Assembly: GCF_026626585.1 (NCBI RefSeq)
Contig: NZ_JAPNKD010000014.1
Coordinates: forward strand, 221,207-285,206
Length of the DNA stretch: 64,000 nucleotides
Origin: Nannocystis sp. ILAH1
GTDB lineage: Bacteria > Myxococcota_A > Polyangia > Nannocystales > Nannocystaceae
Reading direction: 5' to 3'
Below, piece after piece: positions 45,499-58,400 of the stretch. The position numbers and the translations under genes were made by a program. The first letter of the stretch is position 1. The number at the start of each line of letters is the position of its first letter. The notes under the pieces were generated by a model. It was not told the origin of the DNA. It did not search any database and saw only the letters and a program-made list of their open reading frames with translations.

Positions 45499-45735
45499 GA
45501 GATCGCGCTGGAGATCGCGTCGAATTCGCAGCGCAAGAGGCGTGTGAAGATCATTTCGCCGTGCGATGCAAGCAGGCGGTCATGCGCACGATCGGCGCCG
45601 ACGCCGAGAAATTCGCCGGATCTGCGGCGATGCTCGCGATCCACGGCGGAGGAAGACGCACACATCGTCGCTGGGCGTGATCTGGCGTGCAAATCGCGGC
45701 AGTGGGCGGCACGCTAATTCCAAGGAGGCCGCGTC

Positions 45736-46263
45736 ATGCTCGCACACGATCTCGGATCTCTCAGCGTCGGAACGGTCTTGACGACTTCTACCTTCACGGT
45801 GAAGCCGGCCGATCTGACTGCGCATGTGGAGTCCAGCTTCTTGGGACAGGTAGTGGGTTGCGGAGAGGAGATGCTGTCGACCGGGAGCGTGTCCGGCGGC
45901 GGCGCGCCGGAGCCGTGGGGTCGAGTTTGTCCGCTGCCGGTCGCGTTCGGTCGGGCGCTGTCGGCCCTGGCCCACAGCGAGCCGTTCCGCGACGTCGCGC
46001 TCACGCTGCGCAGCATCAGCCGCGTGCGGCGCTTCGGTGAGGTGCTGGTGGGGGAGCCGCTGACTGCGATCGCGACGGTGCGCTTCCGCAGCGGCAGAGT
46101 ACCGAATGCGACGCACGTGACGCTCGCCGTAGAAGTTCACCGCGAGAGCCAACGCGGCCGCGTCGGCGCGACCGCGCTGAGCTTCGAGGTCGGGCTCGAG
46201 CTGCGATCGCTGGCGAGCGCCGCTGCAGAGGTGCAGATGGCTGGCGGCGCCGCCGCCGCGTGA
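45736..46263 (+). CDS. hypothetical protein, possible hotdog fold
   Basis: AAGGAGG 7 nt upstream of ATG; no firm motif. Confidence 0.4.
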   Translation: MLAHDLGSLSVGTVLTTSTFTVKPADLTAHVESSFLGQVVGCGEEMLSTGSVSGGGAPEPWGRVCPLPVAFGRALSALAHSEPFRDVALTLRSISRVRRFGEVLVGEPLTAIATVRFRSGRVPNATHVTLAVEVHRESQRGRVGATALSFEVGLELRSLASAAAEVQMAGGAAAA

Positions 46264-46557
46264 GGCCTGCTTTCGTGCCACTTTGGCCCGGTTCGCCGCG
46301 CCGCGTCATGGTTTTCGGACCATGTCTCAAGATGCAGTCCGTCGCACGCCGTCGCGGTCCTCTGCCGCACGCGACCTGCGCAGTGGCCCGCGGTCCGGTA
46401 GCGCCGCTGGGTGGTCTTTGAGACAGAGGCCGACGGGGCCTGCGCCAGGCTACGCGGCGCGTTTCCGCGCGAGGGCCGAGATAATCTTCTCGGCCACGAT
46501 CGGGTGCGCATCAGCTTGCCAAGGCGGATCCCCTGTGTGACCTTCAGTCTGCGGCGC

Positions 46558-47652
46558 ATGCTCTACGAGGACCGCTACAAGCTGATTTTGGCCGCGTGCC
46601 AGGACATTCGCCGGCATCGCGAGCAGGTCGCCAAGACGGTGATAGCGAGCCAGCTCCTCGACGCCCTCGACGTCGATGTCCCGAGCGACGCGCTGTTGTC
46701 CCACATCGTCGCCGAGTCGCTGTTGCGACGGATCGACCGCAACCTGCTGTCGGGGCGGAACTTGTACCTGCAAGCCGAGAAGCGGCCGCAGATCGACCTG
46801 TTCACGCTGCTGCAGCGGGCGATCCCGGCGGTGCCGCAGGGCTACGCGCTGGCCAACCAGTACCTCGTTCACGCGATGCGGCAGTCGAGCACGCCGGCGC
46901 TGCTCGAGATCGGGATCGGCAAGGGCCTGCAGATCGTCGCGCTGCTGCGGGCGCTCGCGCGCGATCCCGGCAAGATCGAGCGCCTCCGCGTGATCGCGCT
47001 GGAGCCGAACCGCACCGCCCTGAACGAGGGCGTGGCCGCGATCGACGAGGTCCGCGCCGAGCTGCCGTTCGACATCGAGATCTATCCGCTGGTCAAGCTG
47101 ATCGAGGTCTGCGAGGATGCCGACTACGCGCACTTCGAGGCGCTCGCCGAGGGGAGCTTGTCGATCAACGCGGCCTACACGCTGCACCACACCACGGGCC
47201 CCGACAGCGACGCGCGCACCCGCCTGCTGCGGCGGCTGCGGGCCCTGAGGCCGCGGGTGTTCACGCTGGTGGAGCCGAGCTCGGACCACGACACCGAGCA
47301 CCTGACCCGGCGCATGCATCACTGTTGGCAGCACTTCGCGACGGTGTTCGATCTGGTCGACCGCAGCGACGCGTCCCCGGACGAGAAGTTCGCCATCAAG
47401 GAGGGCTTCTTCGGCCGCGAGGTCCGCGACATCCTCGGCACCAGCGACGCCTTCCGCACCGAGCGTCACGAGACGCTCGAGTCGTGGCTGCTCCGGCTGA
47501 AGAAGTCGGGTTTCGTGCCGTACCCGGCGATCGACCTCGACGTCGATCTGCCCGAGTACTGCCGCTCCTCGGTCAGCTCCGGGCTCGTGCGGCTGTCCTA
47601 CCGCGGGGTGCCGATCATCGCGGTGTTCGCGTTCTCGGGGGAGGCGGGATGA
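46558..47652 (+). CDS. bacterial GRAS-domain protein (Rossmann/methyltransferase-like GRAS fold)
   Basis: LEIGIGKGLQIVALLRAL (VHIID-like block), RVIALEPN, C-terminal ERHETLESWLLRLKKSGF matching the plant GRAS RVERHE...AGF motif. Confidence 0.6.
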   Translation: MLYEDRYKLILAACQDIRRHREQVAKTVIASQLLDALDVDVPSDALLSHIVAESLLRRIDRNLLSGRNLYLQAEKRPQIDLFTLLQRAIPAVPQGYALANQYLVHAMRQSSTPALLEIGIGKGLQIVALLRALARDPGKIERLRVIALEPNRTALNEGVAAIDEVRAELPFDIEIYPLVKLIEVCEDADYAHFEALAEGSLSINAAYTLHHTTGPDSDARTRLLRRLRALRPRVFTLVEPSSDHDTEHLTRRMHHCWQHFATVFDLVDRSDASPDEKFAIKEGFFGREVRDILGTSDAFRTERHETLESWLLRLKKSGFVPYPAIDLDVDLPEYCRSSVSSGLVRLSYRGVPIIAVFAFSGEAG

Positions 47653-48191
47653 GCGGCGAGAGCGAGCCGAGCGAGCCGGTGGTCCACGGGGCGCTCATGG
47701 GCGGCTTCGCCCAGGCGTGCGTCAACCTCAACATCGTCGCCGGTCGACGAGCCACCGCGCTGCTGGCCGACATCGACATGGGGCGGTGGTTCCCGCTGTC
47801 GAAGTGGATGGAGATCGAGCGGATGGTCGGCGAGTCGTACGCCAACGTGGAGCCGATCCGGCTCAAGCTCGGCATCGAGATGATGCGGCTGTGGTACCAC
47901 GGCGGGCCCGGCAAGGCGCTCATCCACCGCGGCGCCGACTTCCTGCACTTTCAGACCGGCAGCCACGGCATCGCCAGCGTCATCCGTGGCCCGCGCGAGG
48001 TGGTCGGCTCGTTCGACCTCGCCGAGTTCGACTCGGACCGCGGCCACGCCGTGATCCGCTCGTCCACGCCGTTCGACAAGACGATCGAGCGCGGCGTGCT
48101 GATCGGCGGGGTGATGGCGCCCGGCGACCTCTACTACGTCGACGTGACGAACGACGGCGACCCCAACCGGCTCGTGGTGGAGTTCCACTGA
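47649..48191 (+). CDS. hypothetical protein (180 aa), possible sensor/adaptor of the module
   Basis: ATG overlaps GRAS stop (ATGA); no recognised motif. Confidence 0.45.
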   Translation: MSGESEPSEPVVHGALMGGFAQACVNLNIVAGRRATALLADIDMGRWFPLSKWMEIERMVGESYANVEPIRLKLGIEMMRLWYHGGPGKALIHRGADFLHFQTGSHGIASVIRGPREVVGSFDLAEFDSDRGHAVIRSSTPFDKTIERGVLIGGVMAPGDLYYVDVTNDGDPNRLVVEFH

Positions 48192-48192
48192 G

Positions 48193-49119
48193 ATGACGCT
48201 CGACGAGATCCTCGAGGGGCGAGACCCCGACCGCCTGTCCGAGCTGTCGCGCGAGGACATGCGCAGGCTGTTCTGGATGTACAAGGGCCTGCTCAAGCGG
48301 GTCGAGCGCGACACCGCCTACTGGCAGGCGACCAACGACAACCTGCGCACCGCGTACGAGCGGCTCGACGAGCAGGAGCGCGAGCTGGCCCGCGCCTACC
48401 AGACCATCCGCCAGGACCTCGAGATCGCCCAGCAGGTCCAGCACGCGCTGCTGCCGAAGGACCACCCGGAGATGCTCGCGCGCTTCGAGTTCTCGGTCTA
48501 CCACAAGCAGATGACCGAGGTCGGCGGCGACTACTACGACTTCTACCGCCTGCGCGACGGCAGCCACGCGATCGGCGTGTTCGACATCTCCGGCCACGGG
48601 GTGTCGGCGGCGCTGATCATGGCCTACCTCAAGGCCCAGCTGGTCCAGACGATGGAGCAGGTGTCGCGCCCGCGCGACATCGTCGAGTACCTCAACAACG
48701 CGACCGTCGGGTTCCTCCGCGAGGTCCGCCGCTACGCCACCGTCAACTTCGTCGCGTTCGGCGAGCGCACGTTCCGCTACGTGTGCGGCGGCGGCTACGG
48801 GGTGCTGGTCCGCGGCGGAGAGGTCCACACGTTCAACAAGGGCGACCCGTTCATCGGCCTGCGCCGCCGCGCGTACAGCGAGTACGAGCTGCCCTTCGAG
48901 ACAGGTGACGTGCTGGCGCTGTACACGGACGGCATGGTCGAGGCGCAGGACAGCGCGGGCGCCGACTACAGCACCCGCCGGCTGCACGAGCTCGTGCGCA
49001 CCAACTCGGAGCTGCCGGCCAATCAGATCCTTCAGCGGTGCCTCGACGACTACGGGCAGTTCCGTCGCGTCGACGCCGACGACATCACCCTCATCGTGCT
49101 GCGGAGGCGGGCGGCGTGA
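48193..49119 (+). CDS. PP2C-type serine phosphatase (SpoIIE/RsbU family)
   Basis: GGDYYDF, GVFDISGHGVSAALIMA, LYTDGMVEA, ITLIVL blocks. Confidence 0.8.
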   Translation: MTLDEILEGRDPDRLSELSREDMRRLFWMYKGLLKRVERDTAYWQATNDNLRTAYERLDEQERELARAYQTIRQDLEIAQQVQHALLPKDHPEMLARFEFSVYHKQMTEVGGDYYDFYRLRDGSHAIGVFDISGHGVSAALIMAYLKAQLVQTMEQVSRPRDIVEYLNNATVGFLREVRRYATVNFVAFGERTFRYVCGGGYGVLVRGGEVHTFNKGDPFIGLRRRAYSEYELPFETGDVLALYTDGMVEAQDSAGADYSTRRLHELVRTNSELPANQILQRCLDDYGQFRRVDADDITLIVLRRRAA

Positions 49120-49631
49120 GCGAGCACGAGTTCGACGATGAACCGATCACGACCAGCGTCGGCCTGACGCTGACGGTCGCGCCGATGGGCGACGCGCGTG
49201 GCAACCTGGCGACGACCGTCGGCGAGTCGCTGCTGGCGATGCTGACGGTGTTCTACCCGCAGGCGCTGTGCAAGAAGGCCAACGTGGTCATCACCGAGCT
49301 GGTCCAGAACGTGATCGACAACGTCAGCGATCCGGGCAGCCAGATGCGCGTCGACCTGCGCATCGACGGCGACGCGCTGCAGGTCCAGGTCACCAACAAG
49401 GCGACCTTCGAGCAGTACCAGGACGTCAAGGACCGCGTCGAGCGGCTGACGACCGCGACGGATCCCAAGCGCCTGTTCGCCGACACGCTCCGCGCCCGCC
49501 GCATGCAGCGGCTGCGCGGCGGGCTCGGCCTCATCCGCCTGGTGTCCGAGAACCGCTTCCGCTTGTCCGCGACGTACTCGGGCGAGAACTTGACGATGCA
49601 GGCGGTGTTTCCTTTGCGAGGTGCGCAATGA
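49116..49631 (+). CDS. HATPase_c anti-sigma-factor-type serine kinase (RsbW/SpoIIAB/SiaB-like)
   Basis: GTG overlaps phosphatase stop (GTGA); N-box ELVQNVIDN, G2-like GGLGLIRL. Confidence 0.55.
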   Translation: MSEHEFDDEPITTSVGLTLTVAPMGDARGNLATTVGESLLAMLTVFYPQALCKKANVVITELVQNVIDNVSDPGSQMRVDLRIDGDALQVQVTNKATFEQYQDVKDRVERLTTATDPKRLFADTLRARRMQRLRGGLGLIRLVSENRFRLSATYSGENLTMQAVFPLRGAQ

Positions 49632-50035
49632 ACGTCCTCACCTACGGCGAGATCATGGACGGCGGCGTCAGTGTGTTCCACTGCGTCGCCCGCGAGGACG
49701 AGGGGAACTTCTCCCTCACGTTCTCGGGCGTGGTCCGCATCGACAACCCCTATCGCTATCTGTCGGCCCTGCTGCAGGACCTGCGCGAGATCTTGCCGAA
49801 GCGCGAGATCCAGCGCAGCGTGCTCGACTTCACCGAGCTCGAGTTCTGCAACTCCAACGGCTTCTACGTGATCATGGACATCGTCGAGCTGGTGTACCTG
49901 CTGCTGCCCGGGCCGGTGCTGGTCCGCCGCCTGCAGGAGGACGACTGGCAGCAGGAGACGCTGCCGATCCTGCTCAACCTCGACGAGGAAACCATCGCCG
50001 CCCGGACGACCTTCGAGGACGTGCGAGAGTTCTGA
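49628..50035 (+). CDS. STAS-like anti-sigma-antagonist-type protein (RsbV/SiaC-like)
   Basis: ATG overlaps kinase stop (ATGA); VLDFTELEFCNSNGFYVIMDIVE resembles the STAS vLDlsgv.fiDSsGl block. Confidence 0.5.
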   Translation: MNVLTYGEIMDGGVSVFHCVAREDEGNFSLTFSGVVRIDNPYRYLSALLQDLREILPKREIQRSVLDFTELEFCNSNGFYVIMDIVELVYLLLPGPVLVRRLQEDDWQQETLPILLNLDEETIAARTTFEDVREF

Positions 50036-50036
50036 C

Positions 50037-51125
50037 ATGGTGGCCATCCTCGAGCTGGTGGAGTCGATCGCGCTGCGCGTCGATGCCGACGGCAAGGTGA
50101 CCCCGGTGTCGCCGGCGGCGGCCCGCTGGCTGGCCGCCCGCCCCGGCGCGCCCAGCCTCGGCGCGCTGTTCGGCGCCGCGTCGCCGGCGTTCCTGCGCAG
50201 CCTGGCCGAGAGCAGCGGCAAGGCGGTGCCCGAGAACCCCTGGCCCGAAGGACCTGTCGCATGGGACCTGTCCTTGGAGCCATCCGACGGGGTGCTGGCG
50301 GTGGGCGTCGCGATCCGCTCGCCGCGGGCGCTGGCGTCGCAGCTGGCGACCGCGACCCTGCTCGACAAGAGCCTGGCGCTGGCGGTGTTGCCGCGTGAGT
50401 CGGCGGCGCCGCTCGGCGAGCGGCTCCAGCCCAAGGCGTACCGCGAGTCGACGGTGATGTTCATCGACGCGGTCCAGTTCTCGCGCCTGGCCGCCCGCGT
50501 CGACCCGGTCACCTGCCTCAAGCAGCTCGACTTCTTCTTCTCGGCCTTCGACCAGATCACGACGGCGTTCGGCGTCGAGAAGCTGCGCACCGCCGGCGAC
50601 ACGTACGTGGCGGTCTCGGGCATCCCCCACCGCCGCCTGTCGCACGCCGTCGACGCGACGTTCGCCGCGCTGCGCTGCGCCCAGGTGGTGGCGTCGGGGC
50701 TGACGCCGATCGTCGACGAGTGGGACTGGAGCTTCCGCATCGGCCTCCACTCGGGGCCCTGCATCTCCGGCGTGCTCGGCTCGAAGAAGCCGGTCTACGA
50801 CCTGTGGGGCGACACCGTCAGCGTCGCCAGCCACGTCGAGCGCGTCGGACAGCCCGACTCGGTGTGCGTGTCCGGGGCGGTCCGTCAGCTCATCGAGCCG
50901 TTCTTCTCGCTCGAGTTCCTGCAGACGACGGTGACCCGCAGCGTCGGCGAGATCGAGGTGTTCGCGGTCCGCGGCCTGCTGCCCGAGCTGCAGGCCGACG
51001 ACCAGGCGATGGTCGCCAACGCCGAGTTCACGGCCCGCTACGAGTCGCGCTTCGCGTCGCCGTGCCCGACCGCCGCCCAGGAGGCGCTCGGGGTCGAGCT
51101 CGGCCAGGGCCTCGACGAGTTCTGA
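50037..51125 (+). CDS. class III adenylate/guanylate cyclase with ~150-aa N-terminal unknown domain
   Basis: VMFIDAVQFSRLA, KLRTAGDTYVAVSG, IGLHSGPCISGVLG, YDLWGDTVSVASHVE catalytic blocks; starts 1 nt after previous stop. Confidence 0.8.
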   Translation: MVAILELVESIALRVDADGKVTPVSPAAARWLAARPGAPSLGALFGAASPAFLRSLAESSGKAVPENPWPEGPVAWDLSLEPSDGVLAVGVAIRSPRALASQLATATLLDKSLALAVLPRESAAPLGERLQPKAYRESTVMFIDAVQFSRLAARVDPVTCLKQLDFFFSAFDQITTAFGVEKLRTAGDTYVAVSGIPHRRLSHAVDATFAALRCAQVVASGLTPIVDEWDWSFRIGLHSGPCISGVLGSKKPVYDLWGDTVSVASHVERVGQPDSVCVSGAVRQLIEPFFSLEFLQTTVTRSVGEIEVFAVRGLLPELQADDQAMVANAEFTARYESRFASPCPTAAQEALGVELGQGLDEF

Positions 51126-51143
51126 GTCACCCTCGGGCTGTTC

Positions 51144-51175
51144 GAGAGGGCATGTTCATACGGACATGTCCTCTC
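51144..51175. repeat. REP-like hairpin GAGAGGGCATG-TTCATACGGA-CATGTCCTCTC
   Basis: read directly; convergent gap. Confidence 0.6.
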
Positions 51176-51178
51176 CGT

Positions 51179-51763
51179 TTATTCGAGGCGGTAGTCCTTG
51201 AACAGGTAGGCGTAGAAGCCGATGACCTCGCGCAGCAACGACCACGGCTCGCGCAGCTCGAGCTCGAGGTCGGCGTGCGCGCCGGTGGCCTCGACGCCGA
51301 AGCGGCGCAGCGCCAGCTTGGTGCGGGTGACGTGGTAGTACTGGCTGACGGCGATGGCGGAGCGCTCGCCGCGGGCGCGCAGGTCGGCGGCGACGAAGCG
51401 GGCGGTGGCGTGGGTGTTGATGCCGCCGCGGTCGACGGCGATCCGCTCGGCCGGGACGCCGCGGGCGACCAGGTAGTCGCGCATGACGTCGGCCTCGTGC
51501 GGGCTGCCGGGATCCTGGCCGCCGCTGACGATGAGGCGCGGGACGAGGCCTGCGGCGTACAGGGCGGCGGCGCGATCGAGCCGCAGCTGGAGGCGGCGCG
51601 CGGGCTCGCCGGCGGGGCTGACGTGGTTGCCGAGGACGACCGCGACGTCGGCGGGGCGGTCCTCGTCAGTGCAGCCGTCGACGGCGATGACGAGCAGATG
51701 GACGAGGCCCCAGACGCACAGGAGGGCGAGGAGGCGGAGGATGTACTTTCGCACCTGGCGCAT
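51179..51763 (-). CDS. DUF218 (YdcF/ElyC/SanA-like) protein
   Basis: VAVVLGN, LIVSGG, N-terminal TM. Confidence 0.6.
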   Translation of the reverse strand: MRQVRKYILRLLALLCVWGLVHLLVIAVDGCTDEDRPADVAVVLGNHVSPAGEPARRLQLRLDRAAALYAAGLVPRLIVSGGQDPGSPHEADVMRDYLVARGVPAERIAVDRGGINTHATARFVAADLRARGERSAIAVSQYYHVTRTKLALRRFGVEATGAHADLELELREPWSLLREVIGFYAYLFKDYRLE

Positions 51764-51774
51764 GGGACCTGTCC

Positions 51775-52794
51775 TCAAGGACCTGTGATTTCGCCGTCCG
51801 GCGGGCGCACGGGGAGGCAGGTGAGCCGGGCGGACTCGGGGTCGTAGCGGAAGGTGTCGTGGAGGGCCAGGAGGCGGCGCGCGTAGCCGTGCAGGCGCTC
51901 GGGTCGCATCGACCGCCAGGCGACGCCGGCGGCGCCGGTGGTGTCGAACACGCGCACGCGGCCGAGGCGATCGCGGGCGGGGTCGACGATCATCATGTGA
52001 TGGTACATGCGCTCGCCGCCGCGGGCGCGGGCCCGGTGCGAGACGCTGCAGAGGTTGAGCGCGTCGGGGACGAGGGCGGCGATCAAGGCGTCGGGGCCGA
52101 GCTCGGCGAGGCGCAGCTCGAGCAGCTCGAGGCCGTGGGGGAGGTCATCGGCGGGCAGGCGCGCCGCTATCTGCAGGAGGGCGGCGCGGCCGGCGTGGGC
52201 GCCGTCCTGGCACGACTCGAAGCCGGCGGGCGGATCGCAGGGCACGAGGTCCGCGAGCTCGAGTCGCGGCAACCACAGCAGGCGGACGCCCTCGAGGAAG
52301 CCGCCGAGGCAGCCGAGGTCGTATGTCCCAGGGGACAGCCGCACGGGGCTGCCGGCGTCGGTGCGGCAGAAGCCGGCGGGATCGCCGAGGCGGATGTGGC
52401 CGAGGCGCTCCCAGGCGTCGATCTCGGCCCAGCGATCGGGCTCGAAGGCGAGCTCCATGCCGCGGAAGATCGCGGCGGGGTCGCGCGCGCGCAGGCCGGC
52501 GGCGAGCACCTGCGGGACACGGGGGTAGTGCGCGAGCGAGGGCCAGCGCGCCAGGAGGTCGAGGTCGCGGGCGTCGACCGGCTCGAGGTGGACGGTGAGG
52601 CGAGGCGAGGACCCGCGCGCGGGGTCGAGGTCGCGGGGGCCGAGCGGATCGAGGTGGACGAGTGGGCGCGGGGCGGGGCGCGAGGTCGGTGCGGGCGCGT
52701 CCTCCTCGGGCGCAGCAGCGGGCGCCGGCTCCCCGCAGGCGAGAGCGGCCGCCAGGCCAGCCGTGAGCACCCGCGGGTCGCGCACGGGAGGCAT
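51775..52794 (-). CDS. hypothetical lipoprotein
   Basis: LAAALACGEP lipobox; no known domain. Confidence 0.45.
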   Translation of the reverse strand: MPPVRDPRVLTAGLAAALACGEPAPAAAPEEDAPAPTSRPAPRPLVHLDPLGPRDLDPARGSSPRLTVHLEPVDARDLDLLARWPSLAHYPRVPQVLAAGLRARDPAAIFRGMELAFEPDRWAEIDAWERLGHIRLGDPAGFCRTDAGSPVRLSPGTYDLGCLGGFLEGVRLLWLPRLELADLVPCDPPAGFESCQDGAHAGRAALLQIAARLPADDLPHGLELLELRLAELGPDALIAALVPDALNLCSVSHRARARGGERMYHHMMIVDPARDRLGRVRVFDTTGAAGVAWRSMRPERLHGYARRLLALHDTFRYDPESARLTCLPVRPPDGEITGP

Positions 52795-55196: not shown

Positions 55197-55430
55197 ACGC
55201 TGATCTTTCCCACGACGTTCGCCGATGCGCCAGCGCCGACCGACGAAATTTCTGTGACGTGGTCGCAAGACCGACGAGCGGACGGCCCGCGATCCGGCGC
55301 ACAAGGTAGGTCCGCGGCGCGACCTTCCTGGGGCGAGGCGTCGCCGCGGTCACGCCTCCGGTGCCCCGCTCGAACCCCTAGGGCTTCCGCCGGATGTCGA
55401 TTGCGACATGGCGGAAAGGACATGCCAAGA

Positions 55431-58400
55431 TCAGGCCGGGTGACGCTCGAGCCAGGCGTCGACCTCGGCCCGGTAGTGCTTCGCCCCTGCCTTCCGGAAT
55501 AGGGTCTGCGCCGAAACAGCGAGGGCACGTGCCTGTGCGCGATCTCCGCGAGAGTCCCAGAGGACCTGTGCGAGCTGGAATTCGGCCTGGGCGCGCTGGA
55601 TGGGGGCGTTGCGCGGATCGAGCAAGGAAATGCTGCGCTCGAGGTCGCGGCGCGCGTCGTCGAGGCGACCTTGCGACTGCCGCACCTTGGCGCGAGGGGT
55701 CAGGACCTCGGACATCCACAGCGAGTCGCCGCCGTAGTTGCGCTCGATCGCCGCGACTGCGGCGTCGGCCTCGCGCTCGGCCGCCGACAGATCGCCGAGG
55801 CCCGCGAGCGCGACCCCCCGGATCGCCCGGCTGACGGCGGTATAGAGGTTGTCTTCGCCGAGCACCGAGACGGACAGGGGCAAGGCCTTGTCGGTGTGGT
55901 CGCGGGCGGCGGCGTAGTTGTCGCGGGCGAGCTCGATCTGCGCCAGGGCGAGGTGGGCCAGCACGATGCCCTGGGGGTCGGGGCTCTGCGCGGCGCTCCA
56001 GATGGCGAGCGCGCGGGTGGCGTGCTGCTCGGCCAGACCGAGCTCGCCGCGCACCTGCTGGACCGAAGCGAGGCGCTCGAGCATGGCGGCCACGCGGGTG
56101 CTCAGCGGGCCGAAGTTGTGCTCCCAGATCGCCCGCGCCTCCTCGTAGGCGTCGAGGGCCTCGCCGAAGTCGCCGCGCTGGGCGGCGATGTCGGCCAGCG
56201 CCGACAGCGGGTACGCGAGCCGCTCGTGGCGCGGCGGCAGGGCGGCGCGGAGGATCGTCAGGGCGGCGCGCTGGTGCTTCTCGGCGGTGTCGAAGTCGCC
56301 GCGCAGGGTGGCGACGTTGCCGAGGTCGGCCAGCGAGAAGGCGTTGTTCGGGTGACCCTCGCCGTAGATGTCGCGGCGCAGGGCCAGCAGGTCCTCGAAG
56401 ATGATCTGCGCCGGCTCGAGCTGACCGAGGCTGAGGTGGACGTTGGCGAGGTTCTGGCGCGTGGTGACGGAGGGGACCGAGCGCTCGGGCAGGTCGGCGA
56501 GCGAGCGGCGGTAGTGGTCGATGGCGGTGCCGTACTCGCGGCGGGCCTCGGCGATCTGGCCGCGGCGGAACTCGAGGTCACCGCCGAGGCGGGGCGGGCG
56601 ACCGAGGCGCTCGTGCAGGGCCTCGGCGTGGCGCAGCCACGGCTGGGCGTCGTCGGGGTGGCCGAGGGTCTGCGCCAGGCGGCCGGCGAAGCCGCTGGCT
56701 GTCTCGAAGGCCAGGCGATCGTGACCGGCGGCGAGCGCCTCCCAGTAGGCCTCGCCGTAGACGCGGACGCAGTCGTCGTACTTGCTGGCGACGAACAGCT
56801 GGTCGGCGAGCTGCGCCAGCACCTCGGCGCGCAGCGGTCGATAGCCGAGGTCGCGCGAGCGCTGCTCGGCGGCCTCGAGCAGGTTGAGACCGGCGCCCGG
56901 GTGGCCCGTCGCAGCCTCGGCGCTGGCGAGCGAGAGCTGGTCGCGCAGGCCCTGCACCGCTTCGACGAGCGCGGGCGCGGGCGGGGCGACGTCGGCGCGC
57001 AGGGCGTCGAGGTCGGCGCAGCGGGCCGGGGGCGGCAAGGCCTCGACGGCGTCGTGGGCGTGCGCGACTGCGTCGGCGTCGGCCCCGGCGAGCACGCCGA
57101 GCAGGGCGTCGAGCTCGTGGCGGCGATCCTCGAGGCAGTGCATGCGCCTGTCCAAAAGGTCATGTGATTGTTCGCCGCGGATGTTGGCCGCCGCGCACGC
57201 GTCGGTGTGGCCGGCGATCCACGCCTCGGCCCAGGCGTCGACGCGCGCGCCGGCGCGCGCGGCCGCGTCGGGGGCGTAGGGCAGGCCGGTGGCCGCGAAG
57301 GCGGCGTCGAGGGCGGCGCGGCGCTCGGGGTTCCACGTGGGCGCGAGCGCCTCGGCGGCCCCGGTGCACAGCGCGGGCGCTTCACCGGCGAGGGCGAAGG
57401 CGACGGCGCCGGCGACGAGCAGCGCGCCGCCGCCGGCGAGGGCCCAGCGCCTGCGATCGCGCCGCAGCGGCCGCTCGAGCGCGTCGAGCAGCGCCTGCAT
57501 CGACGGCCACCTGTCCCCGGGTTCAGCCGAGAGGCCGCGGAGGATGGCGCGGTGGATCGCCGGCGGGACCTTGGCGGGGCGCCGCGGCGGATCGACGCGG
57601 CCGCGGGCCTTGGCCGCCTCGAGCGCGAACAGGTTGTCGCCGCTGAACGGGCGGTTGCCGTACAGGCCCTCGTAGAGCGCGACGCAGAAGCTGAACTGAT
57701 CGGCGCGCTCGTCGATCGCGGCGCCGCCCCGCTGCTCCGGGGCCATGTAGGCCGGCGTGCCGACGAGGGTGCCGACGCGGGTGAGCGGGCCGGACACCAG
57801 CGACGAGGACAGCGGATCGATCGGGGCGCCGGGGTCGGGCGCAGCAGCGGGGCTCGTCGGCTCGACCTCGCCGGCGGGCCGCGCCAGGCCGAAGTCGAAC
57901 ACGCAGATCCGACCTGTCTCTCCGACCAGGACGTTGCCGGGCTTGAAGTCGCGGTGGATGATGCCGACGGCGTGGGCGGCGACCAGGCCGCGGCCGGCGG
58001 CGAGGAACACGTCGAGGACCTCGCGCACGCCGCGGACGCGGTCGTCGAGCCACTGGGCGAGGGTGATGCCGGGGACGTACTCCATCACCAGGAACACGCC
58101 GGCGGCCTGCGGTATCCTGTCCTTCGGGACATGTTCCGTGCGGTGTGGGCCGATCCGCATGGTGGTGAGGGCGTCGGCGTCGTAGCTGCCGACGTCGTGG
58201 ACCGCGACGACGTTGCCGTGCGACAGCCGGGCCAGCGCCTGGGCCTCGCGCAGCAGGCGGGCGTGCGCGGCCTGGGCCGGGCCGTCGCCGGGGGCCACGC
58301 GCAGCAGCTTGATCGCGACCTTGCGATCGAGGCTGGGGTCGTAGGCGAGGTAGACGACACCCATGCCGCCGGCGCCGAGGCGACGCATGAGGACGTAGCG

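Follow-up and report, generated by a model that had tools for sequence, protein, structure and literature searches.

Within a 64,000-nt window of the genome of Nannocystis sp. ILAH1 (contig NZ_JAPNKD010000014.1, positions 221,207–285,206), which is the whole stretch of DNA analyzed here, six open reading frames (ORFs) occupy positions 46558–51125 of the + strand. In order, these genes (hereafter G1–G6) encode a GRAS-domain protein (G1; 46558–47652, 364 aa), a stand-alone H-NOX-like protein that is a putative ligand-binding sensor (G2; 47649–48191, 180 aa), a PPM/PP2C (SpoIIE-type) Ser/Thr phosphatase (G3; 48193–49119, 308 aa), a GHKL/HATPase-like protein related to DUF6272 and the slr1658 superfamily (G4; 49116–49631, 171 aa), a single-domain STAS protein with a SpoIIAA fold related to the slr1659 superfamily (G5; 49628–50035, 135 aa), and a protein with a class III nucleotidyl cyclase domain (G6; 50037–51125, 362 aa). 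Together, they may constitute a sigma-less partner-switching cassette that has its own sensor front end and acts on a cyclase protein.

The presence of six ORFs at these coordinates, as proposed in an original prediction made from the DNA sequence, was confirmed. The third-position GC content is 0.94–0.97 in each of the six genes (the genome has a GC content of about 70%), indicating that all six are true reading frames. All five junctions are tight, comprising three 4-nt overlaps (ATGA at 47649, GTGA at 49116, and ATGA at 49628) and two 1-nt gaps (48192 and 50036). The original prediction had described five of six junctions as tight; the tightness stands, whereas the count does not, because six genes have five junctions and the gap at 48192 had been omitted. 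All six proteins are 98–100% identical to those of N. pusilla strain Na p29 (L006), which identifies the source as N. pusilla or a nearly identical strain. Among five Nannocystis species, the ratio of nonsynonymous to synonymous substitution rates (dN/dS) is 0.21 for G6 and 0.08–0.18 for the other five genes (0.08 for G5); purifying selection thus acts on each of the six genes in this genus.

Domain identities of the six gene products

The phosphatase G3 matches the Pfam SpoIIE family (E = 7.8e-28), and its metal-binding motifs (GGDYYD, DISGHG, YTDG, and DDIT) are intact and conserved in 63 orthologs. Its top match in NCBIfam is the C-terminus of SiaA (E = 2.3e-20; 72.7 bits, compared with an equivalog cut-off of 700), of which this 308-aa protein without a membrane part covers just positions 351–656. 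The N-terminal helical region of G3 (about 90 aa) is conserved only where G1 and G2 are present in the locus, and differs in the three-gene loci of Sorangium, Polyangium, and Chondromyces. This change of the G3 N-terminus with the presence of G1 and G2 provides the best evidence that these two proteins act through the phosphatase.

For the kinase-like protein G4, all Pfam matches of the window sequence fall below the cut-off (DUF6272, 2e-3; HATPase_c, 2.5e-3; HATPase_c_2, 7e-3), and the match to the NCBIfam model slr1658_superfam (NF047703) has an E value of 5.7e-9 and a score of 35.6 bits, with a cut-off of 100. Among 19 orthologs, 17 match DUF6272 (best E = 8e-8) and six match HATPase_c_2 (best E = 7e-7) in Pfam. 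In NCBIfam, 18 of the 19 match slr1658_superfam (E values down to 1.9e-12), nine match SiaB_fam_kinase (best E = 1e-5), and two match RsbW; the window G4 itself has no SiaB match. Orthologs show no variation in the N-box (E61..N65) or the G2-box (GGLGL). The G1-box has the sequence NKATF in place of DxGxG, with Asn94 replacing the Asp and the glycines absent, and the same Asp is an Asn in at least 90% of the G4 orthologs. Judging from these matches and motifs, G4 is a weak GHKL relative, presumed to be the Ser kinase and binding partner of G5, and its assignment is the weakest of the six.

The neighboring G5 has no match in Pfam, neither to STAS nor to DUF1987. Its identity comes from an AlphaFold2 model built with 33 homologs (predicted local distance difference test score, pLDDT, of 95.7), which has a STAS/SpoIIAA fold. 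In a Foldseek search, this model matched SpoIIAA bound to SpoIIAB (E = 7.5e-5), other anti-sigma antagonists, RsbV, and SiaC (E = 5e-4; 6kko, 6kkp, and 7e6g). Two motifs of G5 are invariant, namely FCNSNGFY and the C-terminal DDWQQETLPILLN, and Ser76 in the former is the first residue of helix alpha-2 (residues 76–92). The DSSG motif of SpoIIAA carries the phosphorylated Ser of that protein, and the NSNG of G5 falls opposite this DSSG in an alignment that is not significant (E = 1.2). Ser76 is the presumed phosphorylation site of G5. Against slr1659_superfam (NF047705), the window G5 scores 25.2 bits with a cut-off of 100, and all 33 orthologs match this model (E values down to 2.5e-9). Because both proteins score below the 100-bit cut-offs, G4 and G5 are best regarded as distant relatives, and not members, of the slr1658 and slr1659 superfamilies.

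At the front of the cluster, G1 belongs to the GRAS family (Pfam PF03514; E = 1.4e-35, 123.4 bits with a cut-off of 27, residues 43–323). Its alignment runs the full length of the GRAS domain and takes in the G-x-QW, VN..LH, and R-x-ERHE regions as well as the C-terminal region. Among 41 G1 orthologs, ERHE is invariant, and VN..LHH and G-x-Q are conserved. An alternative start codon (GTG at 46537) would extend the protein to 371 aa, as in the call by NCBI, where a 99%-identical protein is named "GRAS family protein [Nannocystis pusilla]." The protein also keeps the G-x-G-x-G loop typical of Rossmann methyltransferase-like folds (IGIGKG; G119, G121, and G123) and the acidic residue that ends beta-2. 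Based on these features, G1 is proposed to be a small-molecule binder or modifier that resembles S-adenosylmethionine (SAM)-dependent methyltransferases. Bacterial GRAS proteins have reportedly been predicted by Zhang, Iyer and Aravind (2012) to be small-molecule methylases, and our literature searches returned no experimental work on any bacterial GRAS protein. Compared with the plant GRAS proteins (DELLA, SCARECROW, and relatives), G1 aligns across the whole GRAS domain but consists of this domain alone, without an N-terminal DELLA-type region; it also retains the SAM-binding loop and resides in a bacterial phospho-signaling operon. A distant GRAS homolog with 34% identity to G1 was found in a Joint Genome Institute metagenome contig (L085, 2–3385) and also in L086 and L087. 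In all three, its gene overlaps by 4 nt with the 3' end of a gene for a GAF-HisKA-HATPase histidine kinase. On its other side lies a convergent alpha/beta-hydrolase gene, which recalls the plant receptors of the GID1/D14 type. The GRAS-histidine kinase pair in L085–L087 is a second signaling context for bacterial GRAS proteins.

The second product, G2, is a member of a small orphan family that comprises only 82 clusters among 5.8 billion sequences. It has no Pfam match, including none to HNOB, and so lies outside the H-NOX sequence family. Searching its profile against PDB by sequence gave only noise (e.g., jacalin with E = 0.03), and the identity was resolved by a fold search. With a structure model of pLDDT 88.4, the first 43 Foldseek matches in PDB are all H-NOX domains or H-NOX-containing chains of soluble guanylate cyclase, indicating that the modeled protein has an H-NOX-like (H-NOX/V4R/Bet3) fold. 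Heme or gas sensing by G2 is unlikely, because the heme-binding proximal His and the YxSxR motif are absent, its His100 is not conserved, and the 87 fused homologs of the domain share no conserved His or Cys. In fold and genomic role, G2 is similar to the stand-alone bacterial H-NOX sensors, which regulate kinases or cyclases encoded nearby, but differs from them in heme chemistry. In soluble guanylate cyclase, an H-NOX domain is combined with a class III cyclase, whereas the presumed route from G2 to the cyclase runs through the phosphatase and the STAS protein, not through direct contact.

An exhaustive profile search with G2 collected 209 representatives, most of the longer of which are PAS-HisKA-HATPase-REC hybrid kinases with the domain at their very N-terminus. 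Such G2-like domains head at least 87 multi-domain proteins (P0283–P0430; examples are L088, L089, and L090), and ten of these that were examined are mostly PAS-HisKA-HATPase-REC hybrid kinases. Because the domain heads so many hybrid kinases, G2 can be regarded as a stand-alone copy of a sensor domain for which Pfam has no model, and this looks like an undescribed and fairly widespread sensor domain. The idea that GRAS is an obligate partner of the G2-like domain was rejected, as three histidine kinases with an N-terminal fusion of this domain have no adjoining GRAS gene.

The last product, G6, has a clear match to the Pfam family Guanylate_cyc (E = 3.7e-36), with the catalytic domain at residues 131–295, and its PDB matches include AC5, AC8, AC9, mycobacterial adenylate cyclases, and guanylate cyclases. 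An exact-sequence lookup of G6 gave no match. When the catalytic residues were mapped by alignment to the C1 and C2 domains of mammalian AC5/8/9, both metal-binding Asp residues were found to be kept and invariant (D144 in FIDAVQF and D188 in AGDTY), and the adenine-specifying Asp is kept in the window G6 (D255 in YDLWG). The catalytic domain is preceded by an N-terminal domain of about 100 aa, in which W76 is invariant and weak PAS matches were obtained for one of 16 orthologs, and directly by a short helix motif (LALAVLP here, LLNILP in orthologs). The C-terminal tail is conserved, and homology extends over the full length of the protein across two phyla.

The original prediction had assigned G1 to GRAS, G3 to the PP2C/SpoIIE phosphatases, G5 to STAS, and G6 to the class III cyclases. 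All four assignments hold, that of G5 by virtue of its fold. The second gene had been listed as unknown and can now be described as encoding an H-NOX-like sensor protein. The term "complete partner-switching module" suits the PP2C and STAS components, whereas the G4 kinase is less canonical than it implies, given the sub-cut-off matches and the NKATF G1-box.

Distribution and genomic context of the cassette

A scan with the G5 family, using one genome per species, identified 80 loci, of which 66 have sufficient flanking DNA for the gene content to be assessed. G3, G4, and G5 occur together in 78 of the 80 loci, which is every locus whose contig allowed checking. All six genes are present in the same order in 26 of the 66 loci, which belong to Nannocystis species and metagenome-assembled genomes (MAGs), other Myxococcota-type MAGs, and many Spirochaetota MAGs. 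This result bears out the gene-neighborhood conservation on which the original prediction depended. Another 13 loci, from various Myxococcota-type and other MAGs, have G1–G5 and no cyclase gene, and the other 27 have only G3–G5 and include those of Sorangium, Polyangium, and Chondromyces. Many of the genomes with only G3–G5 are from closely related Sorangium, so these locus counts do not represent independent events. G1 and G2 always co-occur, such that G1, G2, and the PP2C gene are fixed together in 39 species genomes, and G6 is confined to loci that have G1 and G2.

The genes that flank the six-gene loci are unrelated, and the GC content of these loci ranges from 0.43 to 0.72. The recurrence of one gene order in 26 of the 66 genomes and in two phyla, despite unrelated flanks and varied GC content, indicates that the arrangement is not due to chance. 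The differing flanks and the GC range further indicate that the cassette is a mobile unit under selection. While G6 begins 1 nt past the stop codon of G5 in the window, the two genes overlap in the spirochete MAG L003. In loci without a cyclase gene after G5, the downstream genes are unrelated to one another; for example, a gene for a PAS-GAF-STAS protein is located 16 nt after G5 in Sorangium cellulosum So ce56 (L032, 8422–9801). In Chondromyces apiculatus (L002, 5112–8435), the three-gene core is part of a larger cascade, which consists of a dCache-HAMP-SpoIIE receptor phosphatase, a fused DUF6272-STAS protein (305 aa), and G3-G4-G5. This fused paralog supports a physical contact of the G4-G5 type.

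All 18 spirochete-type loci (L003, L054–L056, L059, L061–L065, L067, L068, L072, L073, L077, L078, L080, and L084) have a seventh gene after the cyclase position (11565–11930 in L003, about 122 aa). Its product has a marginal PilZ match (E = 4e-4; 21 bits with a cut-off of 22.5), and the gene is absent from the Nannocystis loci. In L064, which has no cyclase gene, the PilZ-like gene directly follows G5 and is itself followed by a DUF4118-GGDEF gene. The possibility that GGDEF replaces the cyclase in L064 as an equivalent output was considered and is weakened by the finding that the PilZ-like gene is a conserved seventh gene. Because this gene is common to the spirochete-type loci, L064 appears to have simply lost its cyclase gene, with the GGDEF gene being an unrelated neighbor.

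Regarding the surroundings of the operon in the window, a terminator-like hairpin (14-bp stem, 4-nt loop) is located at 51144–51175 on the + strand and extends to 51185 with its T-rich tail. It begins 19 nt past the stop codon of G6 and is the sole such site in 45600–51900. As 1.3 sites are expected by chance in this region, the pattern by itself is weak; its position immediately after G6 makes it suggestive as the operon terminator. The gene after the hairpin encodes a DUF218 protein on the opposite strand. Upstream of G1, there is about 290 nt of non-coding DNA. No RNA family was found in 45500–51900 by an Rfam search with E values up to 1, and a sigma-70 scan upstream of the operon found no promoter-like site, although such a scan is uninformative for a myxobacterium. 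No sigma-factor domain is encoded by the genes called within about 10 kb on either side in the near-identical N. pusilla locus, which agrees with the original prediction that the module comes without a sigma factor gene.

A 175-aa ORF with no Pfam match lies about 290 nt upstream of the operon (45736–46263, + strand); the N. pusilla annotation gives it as a 154-aa gene, and the spirochete L003 has no counterpart upstream of G1. A Response_reg-GerE regulator is encoded about 5 kb upstream of the operon, and a 932-aa Ser/Thr protein kinase with tetratricopeptide repeats is encoded about 4 kb downstream (approximately 55200–58000, − strand, as inferred from L001 15478–18276). Neither is kept beside the cassette in other genomes. 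Finally, in N. pusilla GCA_049060185.1 (L001, 9390–11394), G4 is 158 aa, G5 is 101 aa, and G6 is split into parts of 142 and 151 aa. These proteins are 99–100% identical to those of the window where aligned, and the frames are intact in the window and in strain Na p29. The short and split versions are most likely frameshift errors of that assembly.

Comparison with known partner-switching systems

Direct control of nucleotide cyclases by STAS proteins has been described for SiaC-SiaD, HsbA-HsbD, and BgrV (PMC8457831; PMC7647112). SiaC binds the stalk of SiaD and promotes the active dimer (PMC8457831). The SiaABCD system of Pseudomonas aeruginosa and the cassette described here are both single operons that encode a PP2C phosphatase, a small GHKL-type protein, and a STAS-fold protein, with the cyclase gene in the last position and no sigma factor gene. 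SiaC is phosphorylated at the start of helix 2, which is the position of Ser76 in G5. In addition, the G5 model fits the SiaC structures, the top NCBIfam match of G3 is the SiaA C-terminus, and nine of 19 G4 orthologs match SiaB. However, the output gene here encodes a class III cyclase, whereas SiaD is a GGDEF diguanylate cyclase, and G3 is soluble and lacks the membrane/HAMP N-terminus of SiaA. G5 has no DUF1987 match and the window G4 has no SiaB match, with scores far below the equivalog cut-offs. Furthermore, G1 (GRAS) and G2 (H-NOX-like) have no counterpart in the Sia system, and the Nannocystis cyclase is degenerate. By analogy, the cassette would work most like SiaABCD without being a member of that system, which makes for a reasonable working model.

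The classical partner switches, RsbU/RsbV/RsbW-SigB and SpoIIE/SpoIIAA/SpoIIAB-SigF, have the same triad of PP2C, GHKL, and STAS proteins, and the closest structures to G5 are those of SpoIIAA in complex with SpoIIAB. In contrast to these systems, the cassette has no sigma factor gene, G4 lacks the G1-box, and both G4 and G5 are very divergent (no Pfam STAS match and sub-cut-off HATPase_c_2, respectively, for G5 and G4). The closest sequence family to G4 and G5 is Slr1658/Slr1659 of Synechocystis, which is likewise a paired module of a kinase-like and a STAS-like protein. When slr1658 is disrupted, the cells recover poorly from iron starvation and pgr5 is de-repressed about 1000-fold; the accessible part of the published account mentions no GRAS, H-NOX-like, or cyclase link for the cyanobacterial system. 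Full-text searches for the six-gene combination and for DUF6272 returned no relevant description, although the 2012 article by Zhang and colleagues was outside their reach and an earlier mention there is possible.

Proposed mechanism, alternatives, and implications

In the proposed mechanism, G1 and G2 would sense a small molecule, with G1 binding or methylating it and/or G2 binding it, and would set the activity of G3 through its lineage-specific N-terminal helical region. G3 would dephosphorylate Ser76 of G5, and G4 would bind G5 and, if catalytically competent, phosphorylate the same residue. The phosphorylation state of G5 would then select its partner, either G4 or some effector, which in loci with an attached cyclase gene, such as this one, would most likely be G6. 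Unphosphorylated G5 would engage the N-terminal domain or the pre-catalytic helix of G6 and thereby control its dimerization or activity, as SiaC does with SiaD. We assign a probability of roughly 0.45 to a sigma-less partner-switching cassette that has its own sensor front end and acts on the cyclase protein. Regarding its parts, a core switch formed by G3, G4, and G5 is highly probable and input through G1 and G2 is reasonably probable, whereas the role of G6 as the direct target of G5 is a tentative proposal, somewhat short of even odds. The most specific version, in which a GRAS and heme-less H-NOX-like front end gates the PP2C, the STAS substrate directly switches a class III cyclase, and the Nannocystis G6 is a pseudo-cyclase or the half of a heterodimer, is unlikely to be correct in every element.

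Several observations weigh against this reading, and some of them concern the output. In the window G6, Arg184 stands in place of the substrate Lys, and Ser262 and His266 occupy the positions of the transition-state Asn and Arg, respectively. The Ser/His pattern is found in five named Nannocystis species and one Nannocystis MAG (L005–L011 and L013), and in L014 the Lys is kept and a Gln occupies the Arg position. Outside Nannocystis, the K, D, N, and R residues are kept in most G6 orthologs (including those of most spirochetes), with L076 and L078 also lacking the Arg. As judged from these alignments, the catalytic degeneration is specific to the Nannocystis clade, and the residue pattern in the window resembles the C1 half of mammalian cyclases. 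With the two transition-state residues and the substrate Lys all missing, strong synthesis of cyclic AMP (cAMP) by a homodimer is probably not the output here. It appears more likely that the Nannocystis G6 has weak or altered activity, forms a C1-like half of a heterodimer, or acts as a nucleotide-binding pseudo-enzyme. Neither a second cyclase nor paralogs of the six genes were found in the window. A real cAMP output in this organism is doubtful, and the cAMP- or cyclic GMP-type output implied by the original prediction fares poorly in Nannocystis. The possibility that G6 is a decaying Nannocystis pseudogene was rejected, as its frame is intact and the dN/dS of 0.21 across five species indicates a maintained protein.

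Other observations of this kind concern the partner of G5 and the activity of G4. The core occurs without a cyclase gene in 40 of the 66 loci, indicating that the cyclase is an accessory and not a universal STAS target, and that G5 must have another partner in the cyclase-less loci, possibly here too. Moreover, G5 is the most conserved of the six proteins, and its conservation (53–77%) far exceeds that of G6 (29–60%) or G4 (31–61%), which suggests that its key partner may be more conserved than G4 or G6. Both patterns are compatible with a switch target that is encoded elsewhere (e.g., a sigma factor, a transcription regulator, or a conserved enzyme). The cyclase would then be an accessory in the same transcript and not the direct partner of G5, either providing a parallel output or serving as an input that conveys cyclic nucleotide or another signal via its N-terminal domain. 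The PAS-GAF-STAS gene that takes the place of the cyclase gene in Sorangium, the unrelated genes found there in other genomes, and the effect of the distant relative Slr1658 on pgr5 transcription in Synechocystis (with no cyclase mentioned in the accessible part of that account) point in the same direction. Nevertheless, we consider such a remote target rather unlikely. G6 is tightly coupled to G5, with the 1-nt gap here and the overlap in L003, and it is kept as the sixth gene across two phyla together with its conserved, family-specific N-terminal domain. Wherever the core lacks G1 and G2, G6 is absent as well, and there is no candidate target nearby. The proposal of the original prediction that the STAS protein controls the cyclase thus stays possible for this locus but does not extend to a general target, and its interpretation as a whole is partly supported.

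The kinase activity of G4 is uncertain, because the G1-box Asp has become Asn and the glycines are lost. In other GHKL proteins, an Asp-to-Asn change at this position abolishes ATP binding. If G4 is a pseudo-kinase, G4 and G5 could be a binding-only pair of the slr1658/slr1659 type, with the PP2C having another substrate or G5 being phosphorylated by an unlinked kinase. This would fit the prevalence of Asn and the missing DxGxG glycines among the orthologs, as well as the placement of the window G4 under every curated cut-off. Neither the profile of the 19 orthologs nor the single Chondromyces ortholog has a significant match in PDB, including any to solved anti-sigma kinases, and no biochemical characterization of the slr1658 family was present in the literature found. 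On the other hand, the invariant N-box Glu/Asn and GGLGL would be difficult to account for if G4 bound no nucleotide, nine of the 19 orthologs match the SiaB family kinase model, and G5 has an invariant Ser at its canonical phospho-site, with an intact PP2C always adjacent. On balance, we regard a pseudo-kinase as improbable. It is very unlikely that the six genes form a metabolic or biosynthetic unit, in which G1 would be a working small-molecule methyltransferase regulated by the others. In favor of such a unit, G1 has kept a SAM-binding loop (G-x-G-x-G) and an acidic residue following beta-2, and the methylase prediction attributed above to Zhang, Iyer and Aravind points the same way. However, the cassette contains no biosynthetic genes and none are conserved in its flanks, signaling domains make up five of the six products, and the distant GRAS homolog likewise has a GAF histidine kinase as its coupled neighbor.

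Partner switches that work without a sigma factor are already well known. What may be new here is the combination of GRAS with a heme-less H-NOX-like protein as a front end, together with a possible new class of output on a partner-switch cassette. The significance of these features rests on inferred protein contacts and phosphorylation. If the STAS protein does control the cyclase, class III cyclases would join sigma factors and diguanylate cyclases as outputs of partner switches. Should the most specific version of the mechanism hold, this would be the first cAMP-type output under the control of a partner switch, and the GRAS family would have an ancestral signaling role, linking small-molecule perception to a phosphatase, that predates its recruitment in plants. 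The degenerate cyclases of Nannocystis and their canonical orthologs provide a natural experiment on how a signaling enzyme can turn into a pseudo-enzyme inside an unchanged pathway. For the G2 domain, the identification of a ligand would annotate a whole class of kinases. Finally, the cassette offers a concrete handle on the function of bacterial GRAS proteins, as binding and activity assays have obvious candidates in the G2 protein and the PP2C phosphatase, which are fixed alongside GRAS in 39 species genomes.

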